In this document: positions 1 through 19,500 of the stretch, piece after piece
How positions within the stretch are numbered: the stretch's first letter is position 1
How the letters are laid out: every line of letters begins with the position of its first letter
Source of the DNA: Candidatus Omnitrophota bacterium
Lineage (GTDB): Bacteria; Omnitrophota; Gorgyraeia; Gygaellales; Profunditerraquicolaceae
Length of the DNA stretch: 64,000 bases
Reading direction: 5' to 3'
NCBI GenBank assembly: GCA_022710715.1
Contig: JAKLGJ010000002.1
Coordinates: forward strand, 309,453-373,452
Program-made: the position numbers and the translations under genes
Notes under the pieces: generated by a model
Told to the model about the DNA's origin: nothing
Database searches by the model: none
What the model saw: only the letters and a program-made list of their open reading frames with translations

Positions 1-1599
1 CTGCCGGTCCTGGCGGTCGTGCTCGGCGCAGTCAACCTTATTGCTTTGTTCCGGTATGGTCTGTTCGTGACCCACGCTTATACTATCCTGGTGGGTATCT
101 TCATCGCTTCCCGCGTGATCCCGGGTATGTTCTTCTACCGCATGCCGAAAGACAACGGGATCATGCCGACCATCTCGATGGTCATCCCTGCGTATAATGA
201 AGAAGAGTCCGCCGCCGAAACCATCGACCGGGCGCTGGCCACCGGGTATCCCATGGATAAAGTGGAAGTGATCGCGATCAACGACGGCTCCCAGGACAAA
301 ACCCTTGAGGCGATGCAGGAAGCCGCCGCGCGGCATCCTGCTAACGTCAGAGTGATCGATTTTAAGCAGAATCGCGGAAAAAGAGAAGGTTTGTATGCCG
401 GCGTCATGGCTGCCGGCGGAAATATTATTGTGGTGGTGGATTCCGATTCGTACCTGCAGCCGGGCAGTTTGTATCAGATCGTGCAGCCGTTCGCCGATCC
501 GGCGATACACGCGGTTTCCGGGCACACCGATGTGCATAACGCGGATACGAACCTGCTCACGCGCATGCAGCAGGTCTGGTACGACGTGATGTTCCGCGTC
601 TTCAAGGCGGGGGAGAGCGTGTTCGGCCTGGTTTCCTGCTGCCCGGGGTGTTTCTCCGCCTATCGCAGGGAAGCGTTGCTTAACGTGCTGGAGGATTTCC
701 GCAACCAGCAGTTTGCCGGCACGCGCTGCACCTACGGCGACGACCGCAGCTTGACCAATATGATCCTGCGCAATAACGGTAAAGTCATCTACCACAGCGG
801 CGCCCGGGCCACCACCATCGTCCCCGATAAATTCAACGTGTACCTGCGGCAGCAACTCCGCTGGAAACGTTCCTGGATCCGCGAATCGCTGACCGTGGCC
901 AGCCGGTTCATGTGGCGCAAGAACCCGGTGATCGGCTGGACGTTCTATATCGCCATCCTGGTGGCTTTTATCTCGCCGCTGGTGGTATTCTATCATGTAA
1001 TCTGGATGTCTATGATGTGCGGCGTTTCTATCTGGCTGTATGTGCTGGGCGTGACCATGGTGCCGGTAACCTGCTCGCTGTATTATCTTATCCGCCACCG
1101 GCACGATCCGCGGGGCAATAATTTCATTCACGGCTTGATGGCGATGTACCTGTACCTGGCGGTGCTGGGATCGCTTAATTACTACGCGTTCTCGACTCTG
1201 GTCAATACCACCTGGGGTACCCGCGCCGTGCAGGATGCCAAACCGTCGCTGCTGGGCTCGTTCAAAAAACGCCTGGCTGACCGGCGCGCGGCCCGGCTGT
1301 CCTCCGGCGCAGGCAGAACCGCGCATCCGGTACTCTCCAATGTAGTGATGTCCGGGTTTCTCATCGCTCCGGTGCTGGCTGCGGCGTTCTTTATTTTCCA
1401 GCATCCCGCAGCGATCCTGGGAGCGGACGTTTTGAACGCGGCGCAGTTCTTCGCTTTCACCAATACGTCCATTTCGGTTATCCTGCAAGTTTTCCTTCCG
1501 GCGATCGCGGCATTCATCGGCGCCTACTGGCTGGGTATTATCGGCGCCGTGATTTTTGTGGCCGGAATGTATTATATCTGGAAACGCGTTTCGCAGTAT
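1..1599 (+). other. Domain: GT2 processive beta-glycosyltransferase (hyaluronan synthase/NodC/chitin-synthase type) with flanking TM helices
   Basis: GT-A core begins at about 160 with IMPTISMVIPAYNEE. DGSQDKT, VVVDSDS, YGDDRSLTNM and the QQLRW motif (about 851-865) are the D,D,D,QxxRW signature of processive synthases. Hydrophobic helices lie before it (1-150) and after it (900-1600). Confidence 0.8.
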
Positions 1600-4500
1600 C
1601 AGGGTGCAGGTGAAACCGGCTTTATGAAGATGCTTGAGCAGCGAACCGAGGGATTGGACGGCGCTTTGAAAAAGCGAATTGCGGTGCTGGCTGCCGGGAA
1701 GCTGCGCTCGATCCTGACGCAGGATCAGGCTTTGACTTTGTCCCCGGGCAAGCTTGCCGCCCGTTTGCCGGTCATCGGCGCTCTGGTAGAGCGGTATGGC
1801 GAAACCCGGATCGGGACTGTAGCGGGCAAGCCGTTAGCCTGGGTATTCGATATCCTGACCATGATGATCGTCTACCGGTTCTTCCTGAAGCATTTCCTGC
1901 TTCCCATGGGCCTTGCCGCCGAGGCCGGCGCATCCGCGTTGCCGCAGGAATTGGCGTTGAGGATCATCGATGAGAGCATTGCCGAAGCGCAGTCCAGGCA
2001 GACCGGCAGGATCGTGAAGCGCGCCGCGTCCGCGGCAATCCGAACGATCACTTTACGCGGTATCGCCGATAAGCTCGATTACAAAGTGCTCGCAGCGGGT
2101 GCCGACCACGCCCGGCGACAGAGCTTCCTGATGAATGGGATAGATGCTGCGCGCCTGGGTTTTTGGGTGACGATCAGCGGGACTTTGTCGCTTTTGACCC
2201 AGAGGGTGATCATCGCGGTAATCGCTTTGCGCATTGCCCCGTTTATCCTGGGCATGGCTTTGCCGGCCGCGATCCTTCAGATCGCGCTTTTCTCCATTCC
2301 TCTGCCCGGGACGGCTGCGTATCTTGTTACCGCCGGGTCGGTACTCAACAGTATGCTGGTTGTCCTGGCCCTTGACATGTCGCGCCTGTATCAGCACGCC
2401 CGGGACGCGTGGCAGCGTAAGATACGGCTTACCCGGGCCCTGGGATTGGCAGCGGTCATGCTTGCCGCAGACACCATTTCCATGGAACTGGTCGGGCCGG
2501 AGATCGCGATTGCGCTCTGGCTGACTGCCGGCATTCCGGTGCTCGGAGACCTGATGCGGCTCATCGAAGAGGTGATTTACGGGGCTAACGGGAAGAGAGG
2601 CATCGGCGCGGCGATCGTGGAAACCGCAGAAGTTGTCATTGGCAGAGCGCCGGCGGCATTCGTTGTCGGCAATTCGGAAGCCTGGGGATGGAATGTGCCC
2701 GCGCAAGGGTGGACTGTCGACTCCAACGGGAAAGGCGTGTATCCTTCTGCGGAAAATTCCTTGAAAGTCGCTGCGGCCGGCATCGGCAATTCCGATTTCG
2801 CGACCGTGGAGCCGGGCAAGCAGTATGTGCTGGAATTTCTCGCCGATGTCCAATCCCTGCCGGACGGCCGGGTGAATGTCGCCATCCAGGAATATAATAT
2901 CGATAATCGCGGCGCCGCATTGATCAATACTGTCGATTACGGCGCCTATACCGCAACAGGTATCGACTACGTCACCAGTCGGTATGCGCCTACCAGCGAA
3001 AATGTCAACGCCGTCTCGATCCAGATCCGCGCGGACACGATCCAACCCGGGGTGCTGGCTTACTTCGACGGCATCCGGCTCTCGGAAATCAAGGAAAGCG
3101 AAGCATTGCGGCAGCTGCAGCAGCCGCACGTGGTGCTGCGTTTCGACGACGGGTGGAGAAATGACGCCATCTGGCAGGACGATTCGCTGCACTATCCTTT
3201 TGTCACCAACGTCATTCCCGAAGCAATAGGTTTTTCGGATAACGAAGACAGCGCCGTCTCGAAGATGTATGTTTCCCAGCCCAACATCCTGCGGTTGAAA
3301 ACGGAATTCGGCGCGCAGATCGGCGCGCATTCCGCGGCGGACGATATCGTGAACCTCTCGCTGCAGGACAAGTTCGTAGAGACCGCAGGGAGCAAGAATC
3401 GGCTGAATGCTCTGGGGTTGAGAACGGATACCTACGCCTCTCCGAGATTCCTGTACAACAACGAAACATTGAGGTTCATCTACCGCAATTACAACTCGCA
3501 TCAGCTCGGCGAGACCAACAAACTGGCAAGCAGCACCTTCCCCTTTAACCGCTATAAATTCTATGTTGCCGTTGAGCCGAAGGAGCTGGGCAGCACGTCG
3601 GAAGCGGCTACGCGCTCCACCGCTGCCGTGCTCGACCAGGCGATTGCCGCCAACGCCACGGCTACCGTGCTTTTCCATAAAGTGAATGCGGATAACGACG
3701 CGTACATCTCATCCGCGACGGAAATATCCCGGGAAACGTACGAAGGGATACTGATCCATATCAAGGATAACGAGAAAAGGATTACGCCGGTGACCTACGA
3801 TCAGCTTCTGGCCTGGCAGGAAGAAGCGCTGGAGCCGGTGGGATTGAACGCGGATTTCAATGCTCAATCCTGGGGAGCGACCAGCCGGTTGATCCCGTTC
3901 TCGCAGCGTGACCATATGCCCGGCCAGGCCGCGGTCAATCTGGGTCAGGAATCCCTGGCGGCTATACGCGCGATCGAGCCGAACAATGCCCAAACGTTAT
4001 TCGGGCTGCCGGCGCCGTTGATCAAATCCCCCGTACGTCTGCCTGTCGCCGGCGGCGCGTTGAAACAGGAAATATATGTTTCCTATCCGCACGCGGACCT
4101 GGGGCTGGGCACGATCCCCGGCGGCCTGGGCGGCACCAGAGCGTACGTTATCGACGAAACCGGGAATTTCTATCGCACCAGCGATATGGGAACGGATTCC
4201 AGCACTCCTCTGGTCTATTCCGGCGAAGATACGTTTGCCGATGAGACCGTCTATAAACTCGACTTGGCGATTACCCGGCCCGGGACGTATTACGTGGTGC
4301 TGCAGACACCGTCAGGTCTTTTGTTGAAGTCGCACGCCTTCGGCGTAGCGGAGGATCCGTTCAGCGATATCGGCGCAGCGATGGTTCAATCCTATCAAAA
4401 CACGAATACCGCAAATCATCCGGAGGTCTCGCGCACTGTGCGCGTGGTCGATGTCAATGATACCCTGATCCGGGTCATACCCGGGATGCCGGATACGATG

Positions 4501-7500
4501 ATGCCGGAAGGAAACGTATTCGCTACCACCGGCTATCTGGCGACTATGTACAATACCTGGGATGTGTTTCTGGAGAAGGATTCGCCTCTTGCCATCAATG
4601 AAAGAGAGCCGATGGAGCAGCTCCTGATGAATCAGGCGCCCTGGATGCTGGCCATGCAGGTGCCGGACGGGAATTTCACCGGTTCCGTTTACCAGGATGA
4701 GGGGGATATCAAGCGATTTATGGGTATTAAATATGACTTTTCCAAGAATCAGCGGGTGGTGCGCGATTTGCGCGACGATCATTACTCTACGGCAGTGACC
4801 GGTCAATATGCCGCGGCGATGAGCAGCGCGGCAGATATCTACGCGCAGCATGGCAACAGCCAGATGGCGGTCGAGTGCACCAAAGCGTCTTTACGCGCCT
4901 GGCAATTCCTGCAGACCCATCCTAACTTCTCCCGGTTCAAGGTCGGCGGGCCGTGGGACGGCGTGGATGTGGATGAACGCGTGCTTACTGCCACCCGACT
5001 GCTGGAAATTTCCTATAATTACCCGGATATTTACGCGCAGGCTCAAGCCGAAACCGGAATTTCTACCGCAACGCCCCGGGACCTGGCCTGGTACATCACC
5101 GTGTATACGCCGCAGTTACGGCCGTGGCTGACCTTTGAAGGCGACCGCCATGACGCCATGGCGTACTGCCATATCGCGTTGTTGCCCGATGGGCTGGTGG
5201 AAAGAACCGGGTTGACTGCCACCCGCGACCTGGCGCAAAAGAAACTGGTGTATTCGTTGGGCGACGAAATTCTCAACCTGGCGGAAAGCCATCCCATGCA
5301 TCAAGGCGTAATGAATGACGAGCACGACGCCTGGGCCTGGGGTTCGACCAGGAACAAGATGGATAAGGCCCGCTGGCTGCTGGTGGTTGACGAGATCTCG
5401 GCGCGTCGGGATAAGGAAGAATACGATGGCCGGTATTTGCGCGCGGCTTATGACATCTGGAGTTCGGTGGTCGAGGCGAGGAATATCTACAGTCGGTCTT
5501 TTATGATCGGTTATTCCGACCGTTCGCCCAGGCAGCCGCACGATGTATTCCATTACAGCGGGTACGTTTCGCTGGATGCGCTTAATGGCAGGATCGTCAA
5601 CGGGCCTTCCAAGTTGCGCGATGATCCGACGATACCCGGTTTATACGAAGTGTACCAGGATATGCCCGATGACGTAAAGATATGGTATGTCAACGAGCCG
5701 ACTTTCCAGGAAAGTTACAGCGCCACCATTTTTGCCAACGCGATCATGCCGGCTCTGGCAACGCGCCAGTTGCTTCCTCCGGGCGTGCAGCTCAATGTTT
5801 CTTCACCTGCGGCCGACACCGCTGTCTTCACGGCCACGCCGGACTCGATCCCTGCCAATGAAGTGGTCACGCTTAGAGCCGCGGACGCGTATAAGGTTTT
5901 ACAATCGATAGTCGGCCCGTACAATCAGAAGTTCGAGTTTCAGGACGATATGCGGCCTGTCGACCCCGGGGGAAATCCTGTGGATCAGCAATTCCAGGTT
6001 GGTTTGGAAAATCTCGATCCTTTCCTGGGATGGGTCCCGGGAGACGTATTGCCGAGCAGACGCATCGTGGAAAGAGCGATACGCAACGCAGACGGCACCT
6101 GGACGGTGCGGGTTCAAGGCAACGATGTTTACAGTCAATTACCCGCGCCTGCGGATTCTCCGGAAGAACGCGCCGCCCGGCGCATTCACGGTAATTTTAT
6201 CGCAGCCGTGCTGTCCCCGAAAGGATACCGGCAGTCCGGAGCCGGTTCCGCCACGCAGATCTGGTATCCGCCGTCCAATCGCCCCGATCTGAAAACGATC
6301 GAGATCATCTATAAAGATGATCTCGACGGAGGCAAGGACAAAGAAATTCGCGGCCCGCCGCAGGCGCCGATGGTTTTGAGCGCCGGACTGACGGCAGTAA
6401 CCGCCGCGTTACTTTCCCCAGGCGAAATCCTGTCGCAATGGGTTGCCCGCCAGCGGGCGCGTAACCGCAAGATCGTCGTAGTCCAGGGGCTTGGTTTTGT
6501 CGGCCAGGCCATGGCTTCAGTGATCGCCACTGCCGACCGCGGACAGGAGTACGCGGTGATCGGAGTGGACCTGCCTTTCAACCAGTCCAAGATCGACTTG
6601 ATCAACCAGGGAATTTCTCCGATCAAAGCCGCAGATCCCAAAGTGGAAAGTTATTTGCGCAGGGCCGTAGTGGAAAGAGATTCGTTGATCGCAACTACAT
6701 CCGCCGAAGCCTACAAGTTCGCCGATATCATCGTGGTGGATGTGCCTTTCGAAGCGAGCAAGCCGGCGATGAGCGCAGTGCTGGATATCGTAATGCGCGA
6801 GAACGATCCTGACAAATGGCTGGAAACGTCCACTATGGATCAGGTGGTCGATCTGTACAGTAAAGAAGGCACGATGTCCCTGAAGGTGTTTACCAGCGCC
6901 ATAGAAGATGTGGCGGCTCATATGAAGGAAGACGCGCTGGTGATCATCGAGACTACCGTCCCGCCCGGCGCCACGGATCTGATCGCCATGCCCATATTCA
7001 ACCGGGTCCGCGCCCAGCGGGGATTCCGCGAACCGGTGGTGGTGGCGCATTCCTATGAGCGGGTCATGCCCGGTCCGGATTATCTGGATTCCATCGCCAA
7101 CTACCCGCGTCAGGTTTCCGGCGTGAACATAGAAAGTCTTCTTAAGGCAACAGCATTTTTCAAGACCATCATCGACACCGAAAAATATCCGCTCAACGCC
7201 CTGGCCAGCCCTACCGAGACCGAGTACGCCAAGATCATCGAAAATACCTACCGCAGTATTCTTATCGCCATGACCCATGATTTCGACCTGCTGGCCGAGC
7301 ATATGGAAGTCAATTACTGGGATGTGCGCGACGGCATCCGGGTGCGGCCGACGCACAATAACATGCTTGCGCCTACATTAGGCGTGGGTGGTTACTGTCT
7401 GCCCAAGGACGCATTGCTGGCTTTGTACGCGGCTAACGAATTCTTCAATATGAGCCCGGATAAAACCGTTTTGATCCTGCGTTCGATCGTGATCAACGAT

Positions 7501-10500
7501 CTGCGCGCTTTACGCTCGGTGCAAATGGCTTTGCAGGGACTCGCCCGGCAGCAGAAGAGGATCGAGGAGGCGCACGTTGCAATTATGGGCGTTTCCTATA
7601 AATCCGGGGTGGATGATACCCGCTATTCTCCGACGGAGACAGCGGCCCGGGCTTTCTTGAAGCTGGGGGCTCAAGTTACGGTGCATGATCCTTATGTTGA
7701 AAGATGGCAGGAGATGGAGCGGGATAGAACGCTGGCCGTGAATTTCCTTAACCATAACGATATGTATTCCGCGTCGCAGGATGCGGATGTGGTTATCTTT
7801 GCCGTGGACCACCCGGAATACAAAAACTTCAATTTTGATTCCTTTACCGACGCCAGGAATAACCGCAAAGCAGTGTTGATCGACGCTTATAACGTGATCA
7901 ACGATGACACTATCCTCAATTTGCTTAGAATGGGCCATGCGGTTTATGGTTACGGCAAAGGGCATATCAAGCGGCTTGAACGTCAGGTTCAGGAGATGCA
8001 GGAGTTGACGGCTGCTCAAAACGGAGAAAGCGCGGATAAGGATCTGGACGGCGGACAAAGCGTTGCGCTTGCGCGCGATGCGGGACCGGTAATCGCCCGG
8101 ATACTGGCGCAGGAAGGAACGGTAGACCTGGCGTGCGCGTCGGGTGAAGTATTTACGCTCGATTACGCCGCGCAGGGAACAACGTATGTCAAGCACCGGC
8201 TGGTCATCTCGCAGGGGGATAGAGTCCGGGGGTATTCTGACGTCGAAGCGGATGTCCAGGTCGGTTGCTACGCAGTTATGGGATGCGGATTCGATCCCAA
8301 GCCTTTTTATGCCGGGAACTGGAAAGAGCTGGCCTGGAAGGAGAGCCGTCATTACGCTTTGCAGTCCCATAGAACAACTTCTCTAGGCTGCTATTCAGGT
8401 ATTGGCCGGACCCTGATGAGCGCGATGCTCTCTCTCATGCGGGATGCGGGAGTGAAAACATTCTTTATCCGGGAGGTTGACCGCAAGGCCGTAGGTTTCT
8501 ACGACGCTCTGGGCTTCGCGGAGTATAAAGATACGATCTATGCCGGCAACGGCGCATCGCTGGGTTACGAGCTCGATCTGGAACGCATCGTGTATCCTTC
8601 TCCGGGCATCGATTTCGTCCCCCTGAAACAGCCGGTTGCGTATCGCATCTCTCCGGCAGCAACCGCGTCGGACGGCGGCGCGGTTACCGAAACTGAAGTG
8701 CTGGAGCAATTGACCGTTCCGCAGACCGGCTGGGAATTGGCGCAAAGCCTGAAGATAAACTCGATCCCGGACGCAGCCCGGTTGTTCAGGATTTGTGCCG
8801 GCAGCCAGGGAATAACCAGCAGGTTCGCCGGGAAGCTCTATGTGCGTATCGCGCAAAAGGAAAACCGGCAGCATACCTTGTCGCCGGCGCTGCTGCGCAG
8901 TTTCCTGGATTACACGGTTATCGCGCGCAGGCAGGATGCGCGCCTTAGGGAAGCGGCTGGCGCCTTGCGCGCTGCCCAGGCTCAAGCCAGCGCCGCTAAG
9001 CTGGGTCTGGCCAGATTTGAGATGACCGATGCCTGGAAGGATATGAATATGTGTCCGGGGATCGCTTTCCTGATCAACGGGGATACCTCCATGGGCATGA
9101 CCAATACGCATAAACGCGAAGAGCTTTTTTCCGGTGAGCTGTTCAACGGATCGGATCTCGACGTGCTCGTGCTTGTCAATGAGCGGCAGAATCCGTTCGT
9201 TGTCGATACGCTGATGCAGAATTTGGAAAACCGTAAGCAGAATCTATTCACCTTCTGGCACGAATCCCTGGATTATACCCTGTATACCCGCAGAGCCTTT
9301 CTTGCCGCAATGGAATCGTTCGATCGCCAGACTGCGGTGAGTATGAGCCAGTTTGCTAAAGCCAGGTTCCTGTGCGGTGACCAGGCGCTGGCTACGGAAG
9401 CGTTCCATGCGCTGGCCCACAGCCGCTGGCAGCGTTATTTCAAAGAGGCTTCTGACGCAGCAAAGCATTCGCGCGCTGCGCTCGTCGCCGCGATGCTGCA
9501 GATACCGGTCGAGGAGTGGAGCAAAGAAATGGTCCGGCAGTTCATGGGGCCGGGCGAGCAATACTGGGAGCTGGAAAGTGCTCACTTCTTCCCGGACGCG
9601 TTCGATGCGGACGGAGGCAGGAATATCGCCGCCGCTTTCTTCGATCTGCGCAAGACCATGCATTCGTATATGTACTTCCCGGGCAAGGAAAAAGATATGC
9701 GGCCGCTGGACCGGAACTGGATCGTCGCATCGCTCGCGGGTGTGGGGGTATTCTATCTGATCGCCGCCTGGTCCAAAGGGCCGCTGGTCATCCTGGGTTC
9801 CTGGGCTGCCTGGCATATCGCGATATTCCTCCGTTCGTATCTGGTCGACCAGTTGCATTATAACCGCAGGCACTGGCGCAAGTGGAGCATGGCGGATTTC
9901 CGCTATCCAAAATTTGCCGGAGCGTTGAGCATGTCCCTGAACAAGATGCTGATCCTGAACGTGTTTGACCTGCTGGTGCTCGGCGCGCTGCTGTTGTTTT
10001 TTCCCGGGGTTTATTTCGGGATTCCCGGTAAATATGTGGCTCTGGCAATCCGCACTGCGATCACGCTGGTATTAAGTTCGTACGTTACCTGGGCGCAGAA
10101 AGGGTTTAATTTCACGCGCAGCGCGGCGCAGGAAGAGGTGATCAAGAATATCGGGTTAAGCCTGTTCTCCACCGCAGTCGGCGCGCTGTACCTTAACGCC
10201 AGCCCCATGGCGTTCGTGGCCCTCTATTCAATCGTGTACAAAGTATTCAGCGAAGCCATCGGAGCCTGGATCGATTACCGCCGTCCCAAACCGCCGCATT
10301 TGTTCCTGCGGCCGGGTGATTATGCCGATATGCCCGCTGAAATCACCGTTCAAGGGCAGCAGCTTTATCCGATGAAGATCATTCGTCAGGTGGAGCGGAT
10401 GGTTAACCGCGATACGCAGCGGATGGAACTGCGCTATGGAATAAACGTCACCGAACCGGCTACTGCGGATAAGCTGATCGTTCCCATGTCCCGGTCCCTG

Positions 10501-13500
10501 GATTTTCTCATCGAAGAAGGCGGGCGGTTCAGCACCAATAACCCGGAGCATCTCAAGAAGCTGGTAGCGTTCGTCCGCGCCGAATTGGAGCGCCAGAAGA
10601 TCGACGCCAATGCCTGGTCCCTGGATGAGCAGCGGCTGGAGAGCGACATACTCGGGAAACTTCCGCTGGAAATGCAGGATTTTGCCGACCAGCTACCCAA
10701 GTTGAACCGGCACATTATCAAACATGGCACGTTGCGCACCCTGGTTACCTACGCCAGCCTGCTGGAAGGCCGGCCGTCGGAAGCTGTTCTCGATGAGGAA
10801 GAGACGATCTTCAGCCGTATTCTGGGCGGGCAGCCGTTCAAAGATCCGGGATTCTGGCACGCTTTACGGCCGGAACATTTCCTCCGCCAACCCATAGAAT
10901 TCGTCATTGCGCAGAAGGATTATTTTGCGGAAGCGGGGAAAGAACGATTGCTCGATCAGATGGAGAGGAAAGTCGAACGCAACCGACTCACCGGGCAGAT
11001 CGTGATCATTCCGTATAAAGGCGGCAATCCGTTTGAGTTGCTGCTGGAGATCATGGAGAATTTTTACTGGCTGCGTTTCAATTCCGCAGTGATCAATCAT
11101 TTGAGGCAGAACGTTGCCGGGGAGTCGTTCGGCAAAGAATTGATCGACCGCTACATTATCAGAAGCTGCTGGCAGCATGCGGATATCTGGAGCTGCAAAA
11201 AAGTCCAGGGAGGCCTGATCGCCGAAAAAGTGCTGCAGTCGGTATCGCGGATGCAATTCAGGCTCTCGATGGATAAACGCGTAATACAATCCCTGTATAC
11301 CCAGCATGACCGGTCCTGGCGGCAATTCTTCTATCCGGTTGCTCACCCCAAACAGACCCAGCTGGTGTTTAAAGACGAGTTCGAGCGGTTGATGGAAGAT
11401 CCTAACCGGCAGGTGCAGGTCAAGCATGTGCGGTTGCTGGAGATCTGGCAGGTCCAGCAGGAAGTCCGCTTGTTCATGAAACAATTGAATAACTACTCGT
11501 TGATTCCGGTTCTGGACGAACGCATCGGGCTTCCTTTGAAAAGCATGGTGAGTTATCTTCTGGCGGAGAGATCGCTGCAGGATATTCTGGAGAAAATGGG
11601 GATAGTGGTTTCTTCAGATGACATCGATGCGCTGATCAAATCCATTATCGTAAAAAAGGCGGCAACCGGCAAGCTGCCGGATGATTTCTTCAAAGCGCTG
11701 GAAGATGTGGATTTGCGAAAGACGATACTGGAACTTCACGACGGCGGCAGCCGCCCGGCAAAGATCAACAGGGAATTGAGGAAGAAAGAGGCAGTCGCAT
11801 CTACCGTGGCAGGTGGCGCTGCCTCTTCCTCAATACCTGCGGTGCATTACGAAAAGACCGGGCGGGTGATCAAAGTATTCGCGCCCAGCGGGTCGCTGCT
11901 TGCCGTGCTGCGCGCTTTTGCCCTGACCGCGGGGCCGGAGGTGAACCTGCCGTTCACCCGGGGTATTTCCATGCGGGTGGCGCCGGTAGGATTACATCAC
12001 CGCGCTTCGGTACTGGAGAAGCTGATGCTGGTGTACAAAGATCACTATTGCCCGGGTGATAAATCCTTCGGCATACGCGAAAACGATATTGTTGCGGTCT
12101 TGTGGGAGAACGAATCGTTCGGCAGAGGACAAGCCTTGAATATGCGGGCGGTTCCGGTCTGGGAATTTGTGCGCACCGGTAAGGGCACAGAGGTCTGGTC
12201 CGAAGCGCTGCCCATGCTGTCCTCAAGAAAAGCGGATATGCGCACAATCATGGTGTTGCTGCTGTTGATACGCAAAGAGCAGGCCAAACTGTTCGATTCC
12301 TACCGGTTCAACGAGCAATTCCTGCAGAAGATCAAAGATGGCACGCGTTGGTCGGACTGGGGAGCGTTGAAGGTACGTAATGCGCAGGAGACAGCGTTAT
12401 TGTTGCATAAGCCGTTGTGGGAGGAATTCCACCGGTCATACTGGAGCATGAGCCGTGAATTGTCCGTCGGGCAGTGGCATGCCGATTCCCTGTTGCCCGA
12501 CGTGTTGTCCAGGCAGGCAGTGTTCGCGGATCTGGGGATGGAAGAGAAGCTGAAACAGGCGCTGGTTGAGCCGCGGCAAAGAGACTTGCTCGAAGCTGTT
12601 CCCGGCAAGAATGCGATCGGCCGCCGCGTGCGCCGGCATATCCGCAGCGCCGGTTTCGACCAGGTCCGCCTCGACGCGTTCAATCTGGACGGCGGCAAAC
12701 TGGTGATCGGCACAATGGACCAGATCAAACAGCAATTCGATCTGTCCGCAAACAAGGCGGTGGTTTACGACGCCGCCGGCGTGCTCTTCGATTGCGATAA
12801 GGAAAAAGTGGTCGATCATTTCCTGGCCATCATTGAGCAACGGATGAAAAAATACGTCGCCCGGCAGGCAGTGGACGAACTGTTCTTCAGCGGAGAAGAA
12901 GCGGGCCGTTTGAGATTAACCCTGCCCATGGAAGCATTTGTGCTTTGCCTCAATGAGGCTCTGCGGGCGAAGGGCTGGCCGGTATCTTTTACCCGGGAAG
13001 AAGTCGAGTATGGATTGACTCTGGGGCATACTCCGATTCCGCAGACCCAGGAGTTCAGCCGCCAGGCGCAGGAGCGGGGCATGGAGCAGTTTGTCCTTTC
13101 CAATCATTTCAAAAGCAAAGACGACCGTCTGCGCAAACAGTTCTACGTCATGGTCAAGCTGCATTATCCGCATATCCCCTCCGATCATATTATTGTTTCC
13201 GAAGAAATCGGTCTGGCCAAGCCGAGCGAAGCGATCTTTCGTCTATTGTTGAACCGTTTCGGGCTGTCTGCCGGCAGTACCCTGTTCATCGACGATCAAC
13301 AGCGCAACGCATTTGCGGCGTACCTGCTGGGCATGAACAGCTGCTGGTTCACTAAACAAACAGACAGTAAGCAGGTGGGCAAACATGGCCTGATCATGAA
13401 GCGCAAGGGCATGGATCTGTATGCTCCCCGGGAGCATCCGGAAGGGGAGGACGTCCTGGTGGATACCGTGCGTATCGCTGACGGTAAGACCGTGCCATTG

Positions 13501-16500
13501 CGAGCCGAATATCCGGCATCCGGGCAGATCGATGAAGCCAGCCAGATCTGGGATATCGAAACCAAACGCCTGCTCGATGTATTTATGCTCGATCTGTCTG
13601 CCCGCAAGCTCGCTCGTTACGCCCAGGGCAGGGAGATCCTTATGCGCAAGGTTTTTCTTGATAAAAATGGGCAGCTTATTCTGGGCGGCCGGCCGTGGGC
13701 TACTTTCTCCGGCGTTCCCGAGGCCGAAGTTGAAGTATACATGAAGAACGGGATCATCCGTAACGTGCTTTTTGTCGGATCCGGCACGCGGGTTGATTTT
13801 ATCCTGCTGCGGGACGCTGCCAGCAACAGGATCGTGGATTCCTACATCAACAAGCTTTTCGCGAAAAGAGCCCGCCGGTACAGACATTTTTACATCGAAT
13901 ATATTGAAACTGATTCCAAGGGCGGATTTTGCGCTTGCGGCCGGGAATACCAGTGGGTGTTCCCGGAACATCCCCGTTCCCGGCTGTCGGTAGAGGTGAA
14001 GCTGGGATTCAGGTATATTCCGGTTCCTGTTGCCGCACGTATTATCGGAGATAACAAACAGATCATTGCCACCCGCGAGCTCAATCTGCTCTGGGATATG
14101 CGGGACAGGTTGATCGGGTCGTTCTTCAAACGACTGGACCCGGCTGCGGTCGCGGCGCGGGAATTCATTATCGAGATGAAAAACGATATTCCGGAATGGG
14201 AACGGTTCAAGGTGAGCGCGTCCAGTTTCAAAGGCCGCAGATTCAAGGATTTGAAAGGGCAGCAATCGCGCGTGTTTGTCAAGGATCTGATCCCGCTGTT
14301 GATCCGGTTCGAGAAGGGAGTGACGTTCGCCTATGATCCGGAGAAGAATTTCCTGTCGCGGGCAAAAAATCAGGATCAGGCCGACCGTTTCCTCTATGCG
14401 CTGGCCTGGGAAGGTTTAACCCCGAACGAGCGGTTGATCTTAGCCCTTGCCGCATATCAAAAGAAAAAAGAATTCAACCTGAAAAGCCTCAAAGAGACCA
14501 ATCTCGGGTACGCATTGTTGAAGCAGGAAGGCAAGAATTCGCTCACCGAGCTCAAACGCATACTGGAAAGATATGAATGGGGTCTGTTGCTGCGGATTAA
14601 CAGTCATTATGTCCTCAAGGGGGGATTCAGGGATTTTATCCGAGAAAAGGAGTCAGTTGATCCGGCTGCCGAGGAGTTTTATTCCGCGCGCGATCTGCAG
14701 AAAGCCCTGCAGGAAGCAGTCAAGCAATCCGACCTTATTCAGCCTTCCCGCGAAGCAATCCGGGAAAAATTCCCCAATCTGGTCCGGGATTACGACGTGC
14801 TCAAGGCGGTCGGCAAGATCTCCTCCGGCTGGAATCAGTTCGTTATTCCCAGGAGCAAACGCGGCCAGGCCCGGGAAGAAGCGGGTAACGGTCAGGCGCA
14901 GGACGGCGGTAAGTCATTACTCGCAACCTGGGATACCATGCTTGATTCCGGGCTGGTCGGCCGGATCTTCGCTTTGCGTCTGCCTTTGCCCGGCCTCGAC
15001 AGGGCGCTGGCGGTGCGCGCTTTATTGCCGGCCGGGGCGGCAAAAGGACTGCAGGACATATTCTTCGAGGATGATCTGATCATCCTGGTTTACAAGATAC
15101 GCGGCCGGCTGCAGTTGTTCCGTATCGCCCCCTGCGATTTTACCGATTATCTGACCGATACCGCGAAAGTTCGCGTTTTTTACAAAGACGATTATAAAGT
15201 TGAAGTCATCGCGGATAATCAGGAGATCGAAGATATTCTTGCCGACCTGCGCTTATACCGGGCGTTCCCGGGATTGTATAATCTGGTATATGGTCTCAAC
15301 TCCGAAGATGTTCACGAGCAGTTGCGCGCCCTGCAAGCCATCAAGGGGCTCATGCGTAACAGCGCGGCTGCTCCGGAAGCGCAGCGGTTGCTTACCGCAT
15401 TGCTGGGCCATGAGAACCGTTATCTGCAGCTGCGGGCGCAGGAGATCCTTAACGCGGTGCACAGCGGACGTCCTGCTGCGTTCCCTGATTTCGAGCGCAT
15501 ACAGTTTGCGGCTCCCGGAGAAGCGATTTCGTTGCCGGAGACAGTCTTGAACGTGGGATTCAATCCTAACGCGCAAACAGTCGCTTTGCGCGGTTTCAAG
15601 GCCCGCCTGGCGATCAAAGACGCAGCATCGGAAAGGTTGCGCTATCGCAATTTAACCGCGACAGCGTATACCGAGAACAGCGTTACGCTCAAGGTCAAGC
15701 CTCACGCGCGCCATCTAAAAGTGTCTGCCGGGATGGCGCATATCGCGTTACAGATTAAACAGCCGGGCAGCCGGTCCTGGGAATTTGTCGATCATCCGAC
15801 AGCCAATCAGCTGGTCATTGTTCAGCCTGATCTGCGCGGCGCGATGATCTATCAGCTCTGGCCGGCGTACCTGGGGGTCTATGATGAGGACGGGCAGGTT
15901 CGCTATGACCATACCGGCAGGGCTATTCCCGGCACATTCAAGGACGCGCAAGACCTGCTGCCGGCGCTTAACGCGCAGGGGTACCGCTACATATATCTCA
16001 TGGGTATTTACCAGTTGGATAAACCCGAGAACATCATCGGACAGGTCGGGCCGGATGCTTCGTTATTCTCTCCGCTGTCATTCGCGGTCAGCCGGGAGTT
16101 GGGCGGCGAAGACGGCTTAAAAGCCCTGATCGATAAAGCCAGGGATGAATTCGGTATCGGGATTATCGTGGACTTGATCCCCCATGTGAACCAGAATTTC
16201 AACGATCTGCCGGAATGGGCCATAGTCAAAGCCAGAGGGTCCGCCGGCAGGGTTATTCGCAGGCTGGCCACCGACGGTTCGATCAACTTCGAGAATGGAT
16301 TACCGGTGGAATGGCATGATTCGGTGATGCTCAATTACCGGGATAACCGGGTGATTCAAGCGCAAGAACAATTACTGCGGCGCCTGGCGGCAATGGGAGT
16401 GCAGGGCGTGCGTATCGACGTAGCCCACAACTTCGGTTCCCTGCTGCCGGTCGACCCTTCTTTAAAGAGCAAGCAAAAGCTGTTCGGGCAGGTCACTTCC

Positions 16501-19500
16501 TGGCAGCGCAATGAACAGGGAGGTTTCAAGATCGTGAACAGCTGGGATGACGGGAAAGCCAATCCTTTCCTGGTCTATCTGGTCGCTGCCATAAGCGCTG
16601 ATTACCCGCACTTCGTCTTTATCGGAGAGAATTATGGAAAATATCTCCAGATCGTCAATTCCGGAGCCATCCCCATGGATTCCGGCACCCACGACGATAT
16701 GGAGAAAGTGATCTTAAAGGGCGGCTCTGCGGCGGATATACTCGGCGGGCATTTCCGCTGGCTGCTCGGCCGGCTTCCTGAAGGCGCGCAGGTCGCTTCG
16801 GCTCTGGAAACGCATGATTATTTCCGCCTGATGGACAGATGGCAAAGTTACGGTCCCGCGCGCATCAAAGCGCCGGTAATGACCTGGCTGGCAACTACCC
16901 GCGGGCCGCTCATGGTCTATAATCGCCAGGAGATCGGGGAGGTTCACCGCATCCGTATCGACAATTACACCAAACATAATTACCAGGAGGCCGACCGGCA
17001 GCGGTATTATGCCCAGCTTGAATTCGAGCGCATACACGGGGAGACCGTGCAGCAATTCTATCGGCGACTGTTTGATTTCTTCAGGTCCAATCCGCTTCTC
17101 TCCCGGGGAGAGAATTATATCCTTACGGTTTCTCCGGAGCAGGTATTCGCCATCGCCAGGTTTGATCAGGAGCAGGCCTTGATCGTGGTGGCGAATATGA
17201 GCTGGCAGACCGCGCTTGCCGAAATAGATCTTATGCCGCTATGGGAGAGAATGGGTCTGAAGGCATCACGGAATACATTCTACCAAATAAGCGATAGCGA
17301 AAGCGAAACACGGGAGATTTTCAGCGGCGAAGAACTTTTCGCGGACACAATCAAGGTCAGGCTGGAAGGATACCGGGCGACCGTGATCGGCTTGAGCGCG
17401 TATGCGCCGGATGGCGGCATCGAGCGCATTGCTTTCCGCGATGCTTTTGCGCGCTATACCCGGCAAGACCGTCCGGTGCGGATCAATGCCAATTTCGCTT
17501 TTGTTTCTCTGGAAGGAACCGTTCTTCGCAATGACCGCAGGTTATTCCATACGCTGTTCGTTCAACTGGCGCATGTAGTGGACGGCAACGATACATTGCC
17601 CGGACTGGTCGCGGGAGATCTTACCCTGCTGATGCATGAACTGCAGGCGAAGTATCCGCAGTTCAGCTGGAGGATCGAGTCGTACCTGGAAGCGCTGCGG
17701 GATGAGGGCGATGATGAAACTGTCCGGCGCGTCGCGGGAAAAGTTCTGCGCTGGGTGAAAGTGGGATCGGTAGTATTCGTTTCTCCGGAAGCTGCTCCGG
17801 TTTCCAAAGCCGGCGGCATGGCCAATGTGGTCGGCGAGCTGGCCGCGGAATTGGCTCAATCCGGCCTGAAGGTCTATGTGGTCAGTCCGTTGTACACCTA
17901 TGGCATAAGACCGCCGGGCTTGTATGAGAATATCAAAGAGGAGACGCGCAGGAAGTTCGATATTTCGTATACCGGCAAGACCATGCAGGTATATGCCGGA
18001 AGAAAAGGCATGGTTCCCGCAGGGTTGGCGCATGCGCAGATCAGCGGGGTCGAGTATTTATTGCTGGATCATCCGGAATTCGCGGATGCGTTGTACGGTT
18101 CTACCGACTCAAAAGAACATGAGCTTCTGCGTTCGATATTCCTCTCCTTCGGCAGCCTGGAAGCTTTGAAGGCCATGCACGTGTATCCGTCTTTGGTTAT
18201 CGGCAATGACTGGACCTGCGCGCCGCTGATGGCGCATCTGAATTCGGACAGGTCACTGTTCAAGCATGACCCGCATTTCAGCGCGGCCAGGACTATCGGC
18301 TGGGTGCATAATAACGGCCAGGATTACCAGTTCAAGGTCCCGCGTTTCGAGAACGGGCAGGACCTGCTCGGTAATCTCGGATTACCGGCTGAAGATTTCG
18401 GCTGGTTCACCGATCCGCATAACGGGAATCTGATCAATTTTACCGCGGCGTTCATCCGGCACGCGCAGTATGTGGTCGCGGTCAGCCCCGGGCAGATGCA
18501 GGATTATCTGCGTTCCGACGAAAAAGGCGGAGGAGAAGGGTTGAGTTTCATCTACCGGGAATTAATGGCTCAAGGCAGGTTATTCGCGGTCACTAACGGC
18601 GTGGCCCTGCGGGAGATCCAGCGCAGATGGTTCGGCCGGTCGATGTTCGATGTTTCCAACGAGCGTCAGCGGCGGGCATTTCTGGATCAGGCCAGGACGG
18701 TAAAAGAAGAATCGCGCGCGATCATCGCGGATACGGCGTTGTTCTGGCCGGCATCCAACGGGAAATCACCCTATTTCGGCCGGGAGCATATGGTGGTGAA
18801 CATGGTCTCGCGCATCACCGAGCAGAAAGGGATCAATTTTGTCGTTCCGTTTGTCCGTCGCGTGATCGAAAGCGGAATCTATCCTGACGTTGCTTTTGTA
18901 TTCGGCGGCAGCGGCGACCGTTTCTGGATGGATACATTGAACGAATTGGTATATGCCTTCCCGGGCAGAGTCGGGTATTCCAACGGTTTCCTCCCGGATC
19001 CGCATCCGCTTTCCATCTATCAGCGCACTTTTCTCGCCGGTGATCTGTTCATCGCTTTCTCGATATGGGAACCGGGAGGGATCTCTCCGATGGAGGCGTT
19101 GGCCTATGGCGTACCCTGCCTGGTCTCGGATAAACAAGGGCACAAATCAACCATAAAGACCATATCCATCCCGGGATTGAATCATCTTCTGGGCATTGAT
19201 GAGTCCGATCCGGGTTTTAACGGCGCGCGTACGCCGGTATATGAATGGGACGTTGATTACACCGTGGATATGATCATGCAGGCTTTTGACCGGATGTACC
19301 AACTGTGGAAAAATCGCGAGACAGACCCCGTATGGGGCCGGCTCGCGGAGAACGCGCTTTTCTCGGATAACAGCTGGGAGCGGTCGGTGAACGACGTGGA
19401 AATTCTCTTCAAGAATGCGCTGGATGGGGGAAAAGACCAGGAGTTGGCGCGGGCATTGGTCGGGTATAGTGCGCAGGAGCAGCCTGTCCGGACACAGCGC

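Follow-up and report, generated by a model that had tools for sequence, protein, structure and literature searches.

The first 8,600 bases of this locus encode a synthase, a deacetylase and a sugar-nucleotide dehydrogenase in one frame, which raises the question of whether a polysaccharide operon has become a single protein. A sequence-only reading had proposed an operon collapsed into one polypeptide of 2,870 residues, with the logic of hasA-hasB, nodC-nodB and pgaC-pgaB. The window, meaning the whole stretch of 64,000 bases that was analysed, contained no stop codon in frame +1, compared to 208 to 993 stops in each of the other five frames. The start and stop codons of the ORF both lie outside the window, so bases 1-8600 do not mark the limits of the object. 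They make up ~13%, about the first eighth, of an ORF that runs to 21,333 codons or more. The enzyme fusion is real and lies on a single chain; one chain was therefore the correct description, but 2,870 residues was not its extent. Approximately 30 Pfam enzyme or repeat domains were found along frame +1 of the window, the repertoire including GT5, GT1, HAD, radical SAM, PPDK, methyltransferase, GNAT and HEAT domains. Most of the domains beyond this stretch were cytoplasmic-type enzymes. The favored reading, given a probability of about 0.6, is that bases 1-8600 are the opening stretch of one giant multi-enzyme gene of the Omnitrophota type, built of protein-sized units and DGG junctions, and that the first unit would be an outward-facing polymer machine.

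Related public contigs are broken into many ORFs, as in an artefact in which misassembly, chimerism or a frame not translated as one product would make the fusion biologically meaningless. This was considered scarcely credible. Among the split ORFs of these relatives nearly all differences are indels (25 gaps compared to 6 mismatches), which is a read-error signature. The probability that 21,333 codons lack a stop by chance is ~1e-381, and GC1, GC2 and GC3 were even along the whole 64 kb with a uniform codon signature. Residues 1-7935 were collinear, over >20 kb, with an orthologue that had been sequenced independently (JGI and Logan contigs L004-L009; 45% GC, 55-68% amino acid identity). Complete genomes also contain documented giant ORFs of this type.

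The tripeptide DGG occurred 35 times compared to 6.4 expected. It was never inside a Pfam domain and was found between most neighboring domains. DGG is a recurring separator of enzyme-sized units, and it may mark processing sites. It splits the stretch into unit A (residues 1-2108), unit B (2112-2682) and unit C (2686-2890). The features are listed in Table 1. The GNAT domain previously read in unit C was retained as a weak match: Acetyltransf_10 gave an E value of 4.5e-4, below the Pfam cut-off, and Naa30 in the PDB gave 0.025. The segment bearing it, from residue 2690, has no counterpart in the orthologue.

Table 1. Features of the giant ORF discussed in the text.
Feature	Residues	Bases	Strand	Basis
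Uninterrupted ORF, 21,333 codons, open at both ends		1..63999	+	0 stops in frame +1
Two N-terminal hydrophobic helices before GT2	3-46	7..138	+	Kyte-Doolittle scan
GT2 (GT-A) catalytic domain, HAS/NodC/chitin-synthase type	56-300	166..900	+	Pfam, NCBIfam, PDB, motifs
Post-catalytic TM helices and WGTR gating-loop motif	317-400; 405-408	949..1224	+	Alignment to HAS
TM-rich linker, ~400 aa	446-850	1336..2550	+	Hydropathy
CBM-like beta jelly roll	890-1032	2668..3096	+	Modelled fold
CE4-fold deacetylase-like domain	1040-1290	3118..3870	+	Family profile and fold search
Ig-like module and GH9-like (alpha/alpha)6 domain	~1375-1500; 1526-1902	4123..5706	+	Pfam, CelD, family alignment
Conserved ~195-aa region, end of unit A	1915-2108	5743..6324	+	51% identity to orthologue
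DGG junction 1, synthase unit/dehydrogenase unit	2109-2111	6325..6333	+	RDGG in orthologue
Weakly hydrophobic stretch, then RQRARNRK	2117-2141	6349..6423	+	Hydropathy 1.47
NDP-sugar dehydrogenase, UDP-N-acetyl-hexosamine type	2157-2634	6469..7902	+	TIGR03026, PDB
DGG junction 2	2683-2685	8047..8055	+	KDGG in orthologue
206-aa unit with weak GNAT-like acetyl-CoA-binding core	2800-2846 (core)	8056..8670	+	Pfam, PDB
DGG junction 3, just beyond bases 1-8600	2891-2893	8671..8679	+	
Second dehydrogenase, TuaD/Ugd (HasB-like) UDP-glucose 6-dehydrogenase type	9052-9464	27154..28392	+	Pfam, NCBIfam

The processive-synthase signature claimed for the GT2 was borne out. GDDRSLT (residues 246-252, nt 736-756) and QQLRW (residues 284-288, nt 850-864) were both present in frame +1, together with GKRE (126-129), DSD (147-149) and GDDR (246-249), and the alignment took in every HAS catalytic motif as well as the TM region. 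With Pfam scores of 116.7 bits for Glyco_tranf_2_3 and 73.2 bits for Chitin_synth_2, the GT2 cleared curated HMM cut-offs. The HMM searches placed the domain in the HAS/NodC/chitin-synthase group of membrane-integrated processive enzymes and not in a non-processive subfamily, the top NCBIfam model being NodC (175.5 bits, model positions 4-394 of 395). The equivalog cut-offs for NodC (550), PgaC (129.8 bits compared to 422.3) and HAS were missed, so the product is not fixed by sequence. The best solved relatives were hyaluronan synthases (E 4.5e-31, including the post-catalytic TM helices and WGTR), a match which cannot separate HAS from NodC because no NodC structure is among the PDB matches. 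Residues 317-408 aligned with the TM region and WGTRG of the Chlorella-virus and Xenopus enzymes. Two N-terminal TM helices are present in HAS structures (PMC11750622); the N-terminal helices predicted here by hydropathy are candidate counterparts. Class I HAS, NodC and chitin synthases share DSD, GDDR, QxxRW and WGTR with the window GT2, as well as a pair of TM helices at the N terminus and several at the C terminus, and full-length alignments were obtained with the NodC model and HAS structures 8smm and 7sp7. The window GT2 differs from them in its 400-aa TM-rich extension, its tailoring domains and its giant-ORF setting. Hydropathy indicated some 6-9 hydrophobic helices in the extension, besides a soluble stretch of ~190 aa, and the crossing count is ambiguous. 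The structure model of residues 1-900 had a pLDDT of 41, too low for use.

The CBM and CE4 calls were both upheld by family profile and fold searches. For the CBM Pfam fails, with CBM_4_9 reaching an E value of 0.019 only, but the modelled jelly roll matched CBM16, CBM4 and CBM70. The CE4 deacetylase was missed by Pfam on the window sequence itself. LRFDDGW is present (residues 1046-1052, nt 3136-3156, frame +1), and the CE4 motifs are RFDDG (1047-1051), the HS of motif 2 (1110-1111), ASPRF (1146-1150) and LFH (1224-1226). The Asp-Asp pair, the first His and the LxH His are invariant. The second metal-binding His of motif 2 is lost throughout the close subfamily.

Residues 1-1284 match a membrane protein of ~1,400 aa with GT2 and TM helices, CBM and CE4. 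They are collinear with a single 1,473-aa ORF (L011), which sits in a Wzx/Glf/GT polysaccharide cluster, and with P0025 (1,391 aa) and P0027, the TM-rich linker included. Where the window has the linker, the GT2 of P0002, P0029 and L010 is joined to CBM-CE4 by a single TM helix; in P0001 one TM helix joins it to Ig-GH9. P0002, from Candidatus Omnitrophota, is the nearest named relative (42% identity), the basis on which an Omnitrophota origin is presumed. Since the block recurs as a single gene and, in other giant proteins, as a cassette, the link between synthase and deacetylase is conserved, and this part of the operon likeness, of the nodC-nodB and pgaC-pgaB kind, held. A collapsed operon is an imprecise description, since GT2-TM-CBM-CE4 is already one gene of normal size elsewhere. 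GT2-CBM-CE4 appears from these homologues to have entered giant genes as a ready-made cassette, from a protein that already existed. GT2-CBM-CE4 and GT2-Ig-GH9 each recur in independent relatives, so a coupling of synthesis and tailoring can reasonably be inferred. In some relatives (P0031, P0028) the order is reversed, with CE4 before GT2.

The Ig/GH9-like region was confirmed. GH9 scored 68.5-74.5 bits in Pfam compared to a curated cut-off of 27.7, and CelD (1clc/4cj0) matched with an E value of 4e-9, the N-terminal Ig-like part included. Clostridium thermocellum CelD (1clc), a GH9 "theme" enzyme, shares the Ig-like module, the (alpha/alpha)6 domain, PHD and NE(x)T. The window domain gave only 38.8 bits to CelD and has PEGN (1502-1505), invariant in the family alignment, in place of the catalytic DAGD. 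PHD (1846-1848) and NE (1898-1899) are retained and invariant. The region between GH9 and the first DGG junction matched no Pfam or NCBIfam family. With DAGD replaced and the second metal-binding His lost, the catalytic competence of the GH9 and CE4 domains is uncertain. These two losses favor an alternative in which both domains are binding pseudoenzymes, or degradative domains directed against a host or prey envelope, and the GT2 is an unrelated neighbor or an anchor or export channel. A predation model based on cell-wall attack is also favored in the literature for giant Omnitrophota proteins. This alternative is unlikely. The linkage to GT2 is kept in stand-alone genes within polysaccharide biosynthesis clusters and not in predation loci, the remaining catalytic residues of both domains are invariant, and the GT2 catalytic motifs are all intact.

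The side of the membrane on which the tailoring domains lie was predicted from the relatives. HAS structures place the WGT(S/R)G loop in the cytosol (PMC11750622), so one helix after WGTR puts the next domain outside. A single helix follows the loop in P0001, P0002, P0029 and L010. In P0002, strong TM helices lie on either side of CBM-CE4 (1798-1816 and 2266-2284), and the flanking domains are enzymes of cytoplasmic type, namely a phosphomannomutase-family (PMM) domain and an acetate kinase. A hydrophobic segment also follows CE4 in the stand-alone homologues. In the window, neither hydropathy nor the orthologue indicated a conserved TM helix between GH9 and the NAD-dependent dehydrogenase. 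The only candidate, the weakly hydrophobic stretch of Table 1, could be a membrane re-entry helix; it is deleted in the orthologue and not conserved. The tailoring domains would thus be cytoplasmic, or the chain would be processed. NodC is thought to release short chito-oligomers inward. In a corresponding factory here, every soluble domain from the CBM through to the dehydrogenase would be cytoplasmic. Short chito-oligomers freed inward by the GT2 would be deacetylated by CE4, in the manner of NodB, and sized by GH9, and would then supply the sugar-nucleotide and glycogen enzymes farther along the chain. Such a factory would fit with the full-length match to NodC, the top curated model, with the span of residues 850-3240, which lacks a conserved TM helix although it includes the dehydrogenase, and with the mostly cytoplasmic-type enzymes in the rest of the ORF. 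Lys/Arg-rich loops lie beside the hydrophobic helices up to residue 870, and the CE4 of L010 is followed by a SAM-dependent CheR-like domain without an intervening strong TM helix. The helices of P0002, the single helix after the cytosolic loop in four relatives and the segment after CE4 in stand-alone homologues all argue against such a factory, and it was held to be doubtful. The NodC equivalog cut-off is missed widely, and CBM and Ig-GH9 modules typically belong to enzymes whose substrates are extracellular polymers.

A UDP-sugar 6-dehydrogenase had correctly been read on the same chain. GGYCLPKD (residues 2463-2470, nt 7387-7410, frame +1) contains the catalytic Cys, the Rossmann motif is GLGFVG (2163-2168), and TIGR03026 scored 236.8 bits compared to a cut-off of 189.8. 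The nearest models and structures were UDP-ManNAc(A), NDP-GalNAcA and Cap5O dehydrogenases (4r16, 3g79) and not Ugd/HasB. UDP-ManNAc dehydrogenases (WecC, Cap5O, 4r16, 3g79) were the best NCBIfam and PDB matches, with the Cys and Rossmann motifs in common, but their equivalog cut-offs were missed (185.6 compared to 750) and the window enzyme has an insertion of ~37 aa in the N-terminal domain; its substrate class is a prediction. The hasA-hasB logic did not survive this assignment. It would make the GT2 a synthase of a hyaluronan-like or other uronic-acid heteropolymer supplied with UDP-uronic acid by the same-chain dehydrogenase, which is improbable. The dehydrogenase lies behind a DGG junction and is found beside the cassette only in one close orthologue, directly after GH9 as here; it is absent beside it in P0001, P0002, L010, L011 and P0025. 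The GT2 has a deacetylase as its conserved partner, which fits a GlcNAc homopolymer. Points in favor are the hyaluronan synthases as best solved GT2 relatives, the position kept in the orthologue, a hyaluronan-binding module among the matches of the CBM model, and a TuaD-type UDP-glucose dehydrogenase in the same ORF. The latter (Pfam 178.9, 96.8 and 85.8 bits; NCBIfam TuaD 406 bits) lies ~6,500 residues downstream and is 22% identical to the first. For the proposed membrane-anchored chain synthesizing, deacetylating and possibly trimming a GlcNAc/GlcA-type polymer, the coupling of synthesis to tailoring was therefore kept and the uronic-acid supply was not.

In the favored reading unit A, which begins upstream of the window, would act as a membrane machine. 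GT2 at the cytoplasmic face would polymerize a GlcNAc-based, probably beta-1,4, chain from UDP-GlcNAc and pass it across the membrane through its own TM channel. On the far side the chain would be held by the tethered CBM, CE4-like and Ig-GH9-like domains; there CE4 may partly de-N-acetylate it and GH9 would perhaps trim it. Unit B would be a separate UDP-N-acetyl-hexosamine-type dehydrogenase, linked to the synthase only presumptively, and unit C a weak GNAT.

Giant Omnitrophota proteins have been described as "Archaeovorins" (West-Roberts et al. 2023, bioRxiv 10.1101/2023.11.21.568195) and as "class 1 multi-enzyme metabolic clusters" (Nielsen & Lui 2026, bioRxiv 10.64898/2026.06.07.730766). 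Both share with the window an ORF of >10,000 aa, scattered TM helices and the GT5 starch-synthase-like, GT1, HAD, radical SAM, methyltransferase, GNAT, HEAT and PPDK repertoire. Neither mentions a chitin-synthase/HAS-like GT2, a deacetylase, a GH9 or a junction motif. The SecA-DEAD and C39/S8 peptidase domains of full-length giant proteins are absent from the window, outside which the ORF ends. NodC-NodB of rhizobia similarly pairs a chito-oligosaccharide-synthase-like GT2 with a CE4 deacetylase. NodB is, however, a separate soluble cytoplasmic protein, whereas relatives of the window CE4 point to an outside-facing domain, and no NodA-like acyltransferase was found here. The logic most resembles that of MatB or PgaC/PgaB, placed on a beta-1,4-type synthase. 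MatB of Streptomyces is a bifunctional PNAG synthase/deacetylase with an intracellular GT2 and a CE4 joined across the membrane on one polypeptide (PMC5972031), and PgaC/PgaB and IcaA/IcaB are split systems with the same synthesize-export-deacetylate logic. The window differs from these in that its GT2 belongs to the HAS/NodC/chitin-synthase group and not the PgaC/IcaA group, and in that its CE4, which lacks one metal-binding His, comes after a CBM and before a GH9-like domain.

Frame +1 of the window ran through 21,333 codons free of stops and was open at both window ends; stop counts in the other five frames ranged from 208 to 993. Base composition gives a probability of approximately 1e-381 for a stop-free stretch this long. 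GC content at codon positions 1, 2 and 3 was approximately 0.59, 0.41 and 0.66 and was steady across all 8-kb slices. The sequence-only reading had described one chain of about 2,870 residues over bases 1-8600. The single chain was upheld but its extent was understated, as the whole window is one reading frame. Criteria for a giant multi-enzyme Omnitrophota protein (10,000 amino acids or more with many enzyme Pfams and transmembrane (TM) helices) were taken from West-Roberts et al. (bioRxiv 10.1101/2023.11.21.568195) and Nielsen & Lui (bioRxiv 10.64898/2026.06.07.730766). The window ORF fits this description with at least 21,333 amino acids, approximately 30 domains and approximately 20 hydrophobic helices. 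Pfam domains along the window included GT5 starch-synthase-like, GT1, alpha-amylase, debranching, HAD, radical SAM, PPDK, several methyltransferases, GNAT, uridine-kinase-like, CYTH, cytidylyltransferase and HEAT repeats. This repertoire corresponds to that of the "Archaeovorin" proteins (West-Roberts et al.) and of the class termed "multi-enzyme metabolic cluster" by Nielsen & Lui. For full-length members of the kind, C39/S8 peptidase and SecA-DEAD domains are reported at the N-terminus; the ends of the window ORF fall beyond the window. Among the relatives P0002 (42% identity) alone gives a taxon, Candidatus Omnitrophota, and suggests an Omnitrophota origin. A chitin-synthase-like GT2, a deacetylase and a GH9 are absent from both giant-gene texts, and a wider literature search returned no paper tying such domains to giant genes. 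The object is a giant multi-enzyme gene of an already known kind, with a synthase-tailoring cassette that is undescribed in the available giant-gene papers.

Repeated units were visible within the ORF. Two GT5+GT1 glycogen-synthase-like units were approximately 40% identical, each lying between Asp-Gly-Gly (DGG) tripeptides. A unit of approximately 350 amino acids occurred in three copies (44-60% identity), two adjacent and the third about 350 amino acids further on, and a pair of methyltransferase units shared 37% identity. Two GNAT-like units were rejected as paralogues as they share no similarity. Antisense ORFs, the longest of 610 amino acids, had no homology support. The listed minus-strand ORFs belong largely to one antisense frame, the poorest in stops (208); such scarcity is expected where the opposite gene has GC-rich third positions and would favor long chance ORFs. 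They are most likely spurious. The coordinates of all features are collected in the table.

Coordinates of features in the window reading frame and on related contigs (nucleotide positions are those of the window unless a contig is named)
Feature	Nucleotides	Residues (frame +1)	Strand
Synthase unit (part within window)		1-2108	+
GT2 hydrophobic helices		3-46; 317-400	+
GT2 motif VDSDS		146-150	+
GT2 motif GDDRSLT		246-252	+
GT2 motif QQLRW		284-288	+
WGTR gating loop		405-408	+
First three DGG	6325-6333; 8047-8055; 8671-8679	2109; 2683; 2891	+
All 35 DGG sites	6325-62165	2109-20721	+
Dehydrogenase unit		2112-2682	+
Rossmann motif GLGFVG		2163-2168	+
GGYCLPKD with catalytic Cys		2463-2470	+
Weak GNAT unit		2686-2890	+
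First stretch missing from orthologue	8068-11694	2690-3898	+
Two strong TM helices		3240-3334	+
Second stretch missing from orthologue	13423-14877	4475-4959	+
Two GT5+GT1 units	17404-21363	5802-7121	+
Second dehydrogenase	27154-28392	9052-9464	+
Three copies of ~350-aa unit	33298-37470	11100-12490	+
Methyltransferase unit pair	41122-41979; 61348-62181		
Antisense ORFs (examples)	2053-3678; 55003-56835		-
Stand-alone GT2 gene	L001 8281-10224		
Stand-alone cassette ORF	L011 7187-11605		
Cassette with frame change	L006 7587-11992		

All four motifs quoted in the sequence-only reading (GDDRSLT, QQLRW, LRFDDGW and GGYCLPKD) were present where it had placed them. The VDSDS, GDDRSLT and QQLRW motifs of the GT2 domain align to those of hyaluronan synthase (HAS), and the domain has hydrophobic helices and a WGTR gating loop. 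Pfam scores were 116.7 bits for Glyco_tranf_2_3 and 73.2 bits for Chitin_synth_2. The nearest solved relatives were hyaluronan synthases (E 4.5e-31), with an alignment that takes in GKRE, DSD, GDDR and QxxRW as well as WGTR and the TM helices behind the catalytic domain; by HMMER it extends to aa 409 of the window. NodC was the top NCBIfam model and was matched over its full length, in agreement with the earlier call of a processive-type synthase. The score of 175.5 bits was well below the TIGR04242 cut-off of 550, and by this measure the GT2 is not a NodC orthologue. The PgaC/IcaA equivalog TIGR03937 was likewise scored below its cut-off (129.8 vs 422.3 bits). Judged by alignment, the GT2 retains every motif essential in HAS; the roles of these motifs and of the cytosolic WGT(R/S) gating loop have been described (PMC11750622). 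An AF2 model of aa 1-900, sought for the channel fold and TM count and built on a 5-sequence alignment, had a mean pLDDT of 41, too low for use. In GTDB representative genomes the closest GT2, 46% identical over aa 6-408, was on L001, a contig of a Thermoleophilaceae MAG (DASVVS010000010.1). In this high-GC actinobacterial MAG the GT2 stands alone as an ordinary gene, and it was the only match of the protein-pattern scan. An exact 47-mer of the window had no match in JGI metagenomes.

On the window sequence alone the CE4 domain scored 12.3 bits against PF01522 (E 0.17; gathering score 23.1) and CBM_4_9 failed with an E value of 0.019. PF01522 was matched by all four aligned family members (aa 886-1312 and three relatives; best E 4.5e-8), and P0002 scored 29.7 bits. 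A CE4 family profile run against 1.84 billion representative proteins identified 2,910 relatives. Every one of eight distant matches sampled was a canonical PF01522 protein over the gathering score (E 1e-12 to 1e-27). The domain has the distorted (beta/alpha) barrel fold of CE4. Based on the family alignment and profile search the CE4 and CBM folds are both genuine; both earlier calls stand on the family tests but not on Pfam scores of the window sequence alone. In the CE4 domain the Asp-Asp pair, the LxH His and the first His of motif 2 are invariant, and motif 2 lacks its second His. This second metal-binding His is missing from the window sequence and from relatives P0009, P0010, P0002 and P0025, and is present in the more distant P0031 and in canonical members. 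The GH9-like domain called earlier passed the curated threshold of PF00759 (68.5-74.5 bits vs gathering score 27.7) and matched CelD (E 4e-9). The catalytic DAGD aligns to PEG-, with PEGN invariant in three family members, and the NE Glu and PHD His are retained. Given the residue losses in both, activity of the CE4-like and GH9-like tailoring domains is plausible, not assured.

The adjacent dehydrogenase scored 236.8 bits against TIGR03026 (cut-off 189.8), in line with the earlier call of a UDP-sugar dehydrogenase. It contains a Rossmann GLGFVG motif and a catalytic Cys. It scored 76.2 and 81.6 bits against the UDP-glucose dehydrogenase models TuaD and AglM, compared to 185.6 bits against archaeal UDP-ManNAc dehydrogenase, and its top PDB matches were 4r16, 3g79 and Cap5O. 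Its closest curated models and solved structures are dehydrogenases of the UDP-ManNAc(A), NDP-GalNAcA and Cap5O types rather than of UDP-glucose, and the domain falls outside the HasB/Ugd/TuaD type. The proposed parallel to hasA-hasB was dropped as the adjacent enzyme is closest to the UDP-ManNAc type. A second dehydrogenase of TuaD/Ugd type (NCBIfam TuaD 406 bits) is encoded in the same ORF approximately 6,500 residues downstream. It is 22% identical to the first, and its Rossmann fold begins 8 residues past a DGG. The GNAT domain was below Pfam cut-offs (Acetyltransf_10 20.6 vs 23.6 bits; Acetyltransf_1 19.5 vs 20.7 bits) and matched Naa30 with an E value of 0.025. Its acetyl-CoA-binding core was the only recognisable part, leaving the earlier GNAT call as a weak one.

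An orthologue with 45% GC was found on contigs L004, L005 and L007-L009 (JGI samples 3300018425/489/490/772 and Logan SRR5196689). Its domain order is the same, and it aligns collinearly with aa 1-7935 of the window, with identities of 55-68%. Two stretches of the window are missing from it, the first of which holds two strong TM helices in addition to the weak GNAT. A search of 5.8 billion clusters with aa 2871-4500, which covers most of that first stretch, returned no homologue at E 1e-8. The orthologue contigs were called as many ORFs of 31 to 2,301 amino acids. Compared to one another they differ almost only by indels (6 mismatches vs 25 gaps), and similarity continues through stops and frame changes, indicating that the fragmentation is read error. 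On the same grounds L004-L009 were ruled out as an "unfused operon" version. As a consequence of such fragmentation protein databases list pieces of giant genes as ordinary proteins.

The cassette of GT2, TM helices, CBM and CE4 was also found as an ordinary gene. L011, a 369-kb contig with 28.5% GC, encodes it as one 1,473-aa ORF collinear with window aa 1-1284. This ORF is flanked by IMP dehydrogenase on one side and by a Wzx flippase, UDP-galactopyranose mutase and glycosyltransferases on the other. P0025 (1,391 aa) and P0027 resemble this stand-alone gene. On contig L006 two genes were called, the second frame opening exactly where the first closes. Their reading as separate genes is doubtful since P0025 and L011 hold the same region as a single ORF, and L006 probably carries the same stand-alone gene with a frame change. 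L011 and L006 derive from low-GC (28-32%) organisms and share genes of approximately 1,400 amino acids with common LutB and IMP-dehydrogenase synteny. A 4HFCP synthase (methanofuran pathway) on L006 hints at an archaeon. Other relatives place the GT2 beside different partners. The order in P0002 is phosphomannomutase-family (PMM), GT2, one TM helix, CBM-CE4, one TM helix and acetate kinase, and in P0001 it is radical SAM, GT2, one TM helix and Ig-GH9. Contig L010 (ORF of at least 5,691 aa) has GT2, one TM helix, CBM-CE4 and a CheR-like methyltransferase, and P0031 and P0028 have the reverse domain order. This recurrence with other neighbors identifies GT2 with CBM-CE4 and/or Ig-GH9 as the conserved unit, and by these comparisons the dehydrogenase and GNAT are its variable neighbors. 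The coupling of synthesis, deacetylation and trimming proposed earlier is borne out to the extent that the tie of GT2 to CBM-CE4 and Ig-GH9 recurs. The description as a collapsed operon is not, the cassette being a single ordinary gene elsewhere.

Sequence comparison shows a complete HAS/NodC-type synthase with TM helices and a conserved tether to CBM-CE4 and Ig-GH9. The synthase would polymerise a GlcNAc-based, probably beta-1,4, chain and export it via its own channel. The tethered domains would bind the chain, partly de-N-acetylate it and perhaps trim it. An outward-facing tailoring module is suggested by three features: the WGTR loop is cytosolic in HAS (PMC11750622), four relatives have a single helix between this loop and the tailoring domain, and P0002 has a strong second helix right after CE4, ahead of a cytoplasmic kinase. 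By analogy with P0002, where CE4 lies between TM helices 1798-1816 and 2266-2284, we infer that the CE4 domain is located outside. A NodC/NodB-like arrangement with the tailoring domains on the cytoplasmic face is unlikely but must be weighed, as the crossing count in the 400-aa linker of the window is ambiguous by hydropathy, the span from GH9 to the NAD-dependent dehydrogenase has no conserved helix, and L010 poses the same difficulty. A weak hydrophobic stretch at aa 2117-2141 was ruled out as a conserved re-entry helix as it is deleted in the orthologue.

The tripeptide DGG occurred 35 times in 21,333 amino acids compared to 6.4 ± 2.5 in shuffles, making it the most over-represented tripeptide (z = 11.3). 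The enrichment was absent in all other xGG or DxG tripeptides. None of the 35 lay inside a Pfam match, matches covering 27% of residues (P ~1.5e-5), and 22 of 29 gaps between neighboring domains held at least one. The seven DGG-free gaps include PPDK_N with PEP-utilizers, PRK with CYTH, and the GT2-to-GH9 stretch of the synthase unit. PPDK_N with PEP-utilizers and PRK with CYTH are family pairs that share one protein elsewhere. Many inter-DGG units are of natural protein size (GDSL 259 aa, methyltransferases 277-286 aa, GGACT 141 aa, GNAT 208 aa), and the duplicated glycogen-synthase-like units measure 671 and 668 aa. The first three DGGs split the region into synthase, dehydrogenase and GNAT units. 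DGG codons vary and their GAC bias is that of any Asp before Gly, which points to selection on the peptide. A DNA-level signal or internal Shine-Dalgarno was excluded by 11 different 9-mers, the ordinary GAC bias and the lack of a consistent downstream start codon. A classic C39 double-glycine leader was rejected as no hydrophobic pattern was seen at -4, -7 and -12.

In the orthologue (L009) 11 DGGs were found vs 2.4 expected, most preceded by Lys or Arg. Four window sites that can be aligned are kept in this approximately 60%-identical orthologue while flanking residues have diverged. The previous DGG of the orthologue is approximately 410 residues upstream of window position 1, with another GT2 domain between. 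No junction motif was found in the more distant giant fragments P0001, P0002, P0031 and L010, and a literature search returned no report of one in giant proteins. DGG may be a processing or junction signal, or a linker. A further reading, possible but somewhat doubtful, is that the giant ORF is a bacterial polyprotein in which a Gly-Gly-directed peptidase cuts at DGG and frees approximately 36 separate enzymes. Candidates for this peptidase would include the C39 or S8 domains that are reported from the termini of full-length giant Omnitrophota proteins. The fusion would then be transient: the synthase-CBM-CE4-GH9 unit would remain in the membrane as one protein of approximately 2,500 amino acids and the dehydrogenase and GNAT would be released to the cytoplasm. 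If true this would also solve the topology paradox. West-Roberts et al. put forward C39 or S8 domains as the cleaving enzymes and noted that no cleavage points were known; DGG would supply that information. If DGGs are processing sites, proteomics could address directly if giant proteins are cut and at which positions, and these proteins could be split sensibly for structure prediction. The motif deserves follow-up.

The functions of parts in giant genes of uncultured, host-dependent bacteria have so far been largely guesswork. With the tethered synthase and tailoring domains as the conserved unit, the window lends itself to a concrete hypothesis, in which one self-contained machine makes and tailors a chitin-/chitosan-like surface polymer. 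The ordinary-gene form of approximately 1,400 amino acids would be amenable to expression and assay. Entire genes of membrane proteins, with their TM helices, can enter giant genes in frame. The same architecture occurs in genes of polysaccharide clusters, and the domain pair of MatB, GT2 and CE4, is present on one chain. MatB, PgaCB and IcaAB follow the same logic of synthesis and deacetylation, whereas the window version is built on a different synthase clade.
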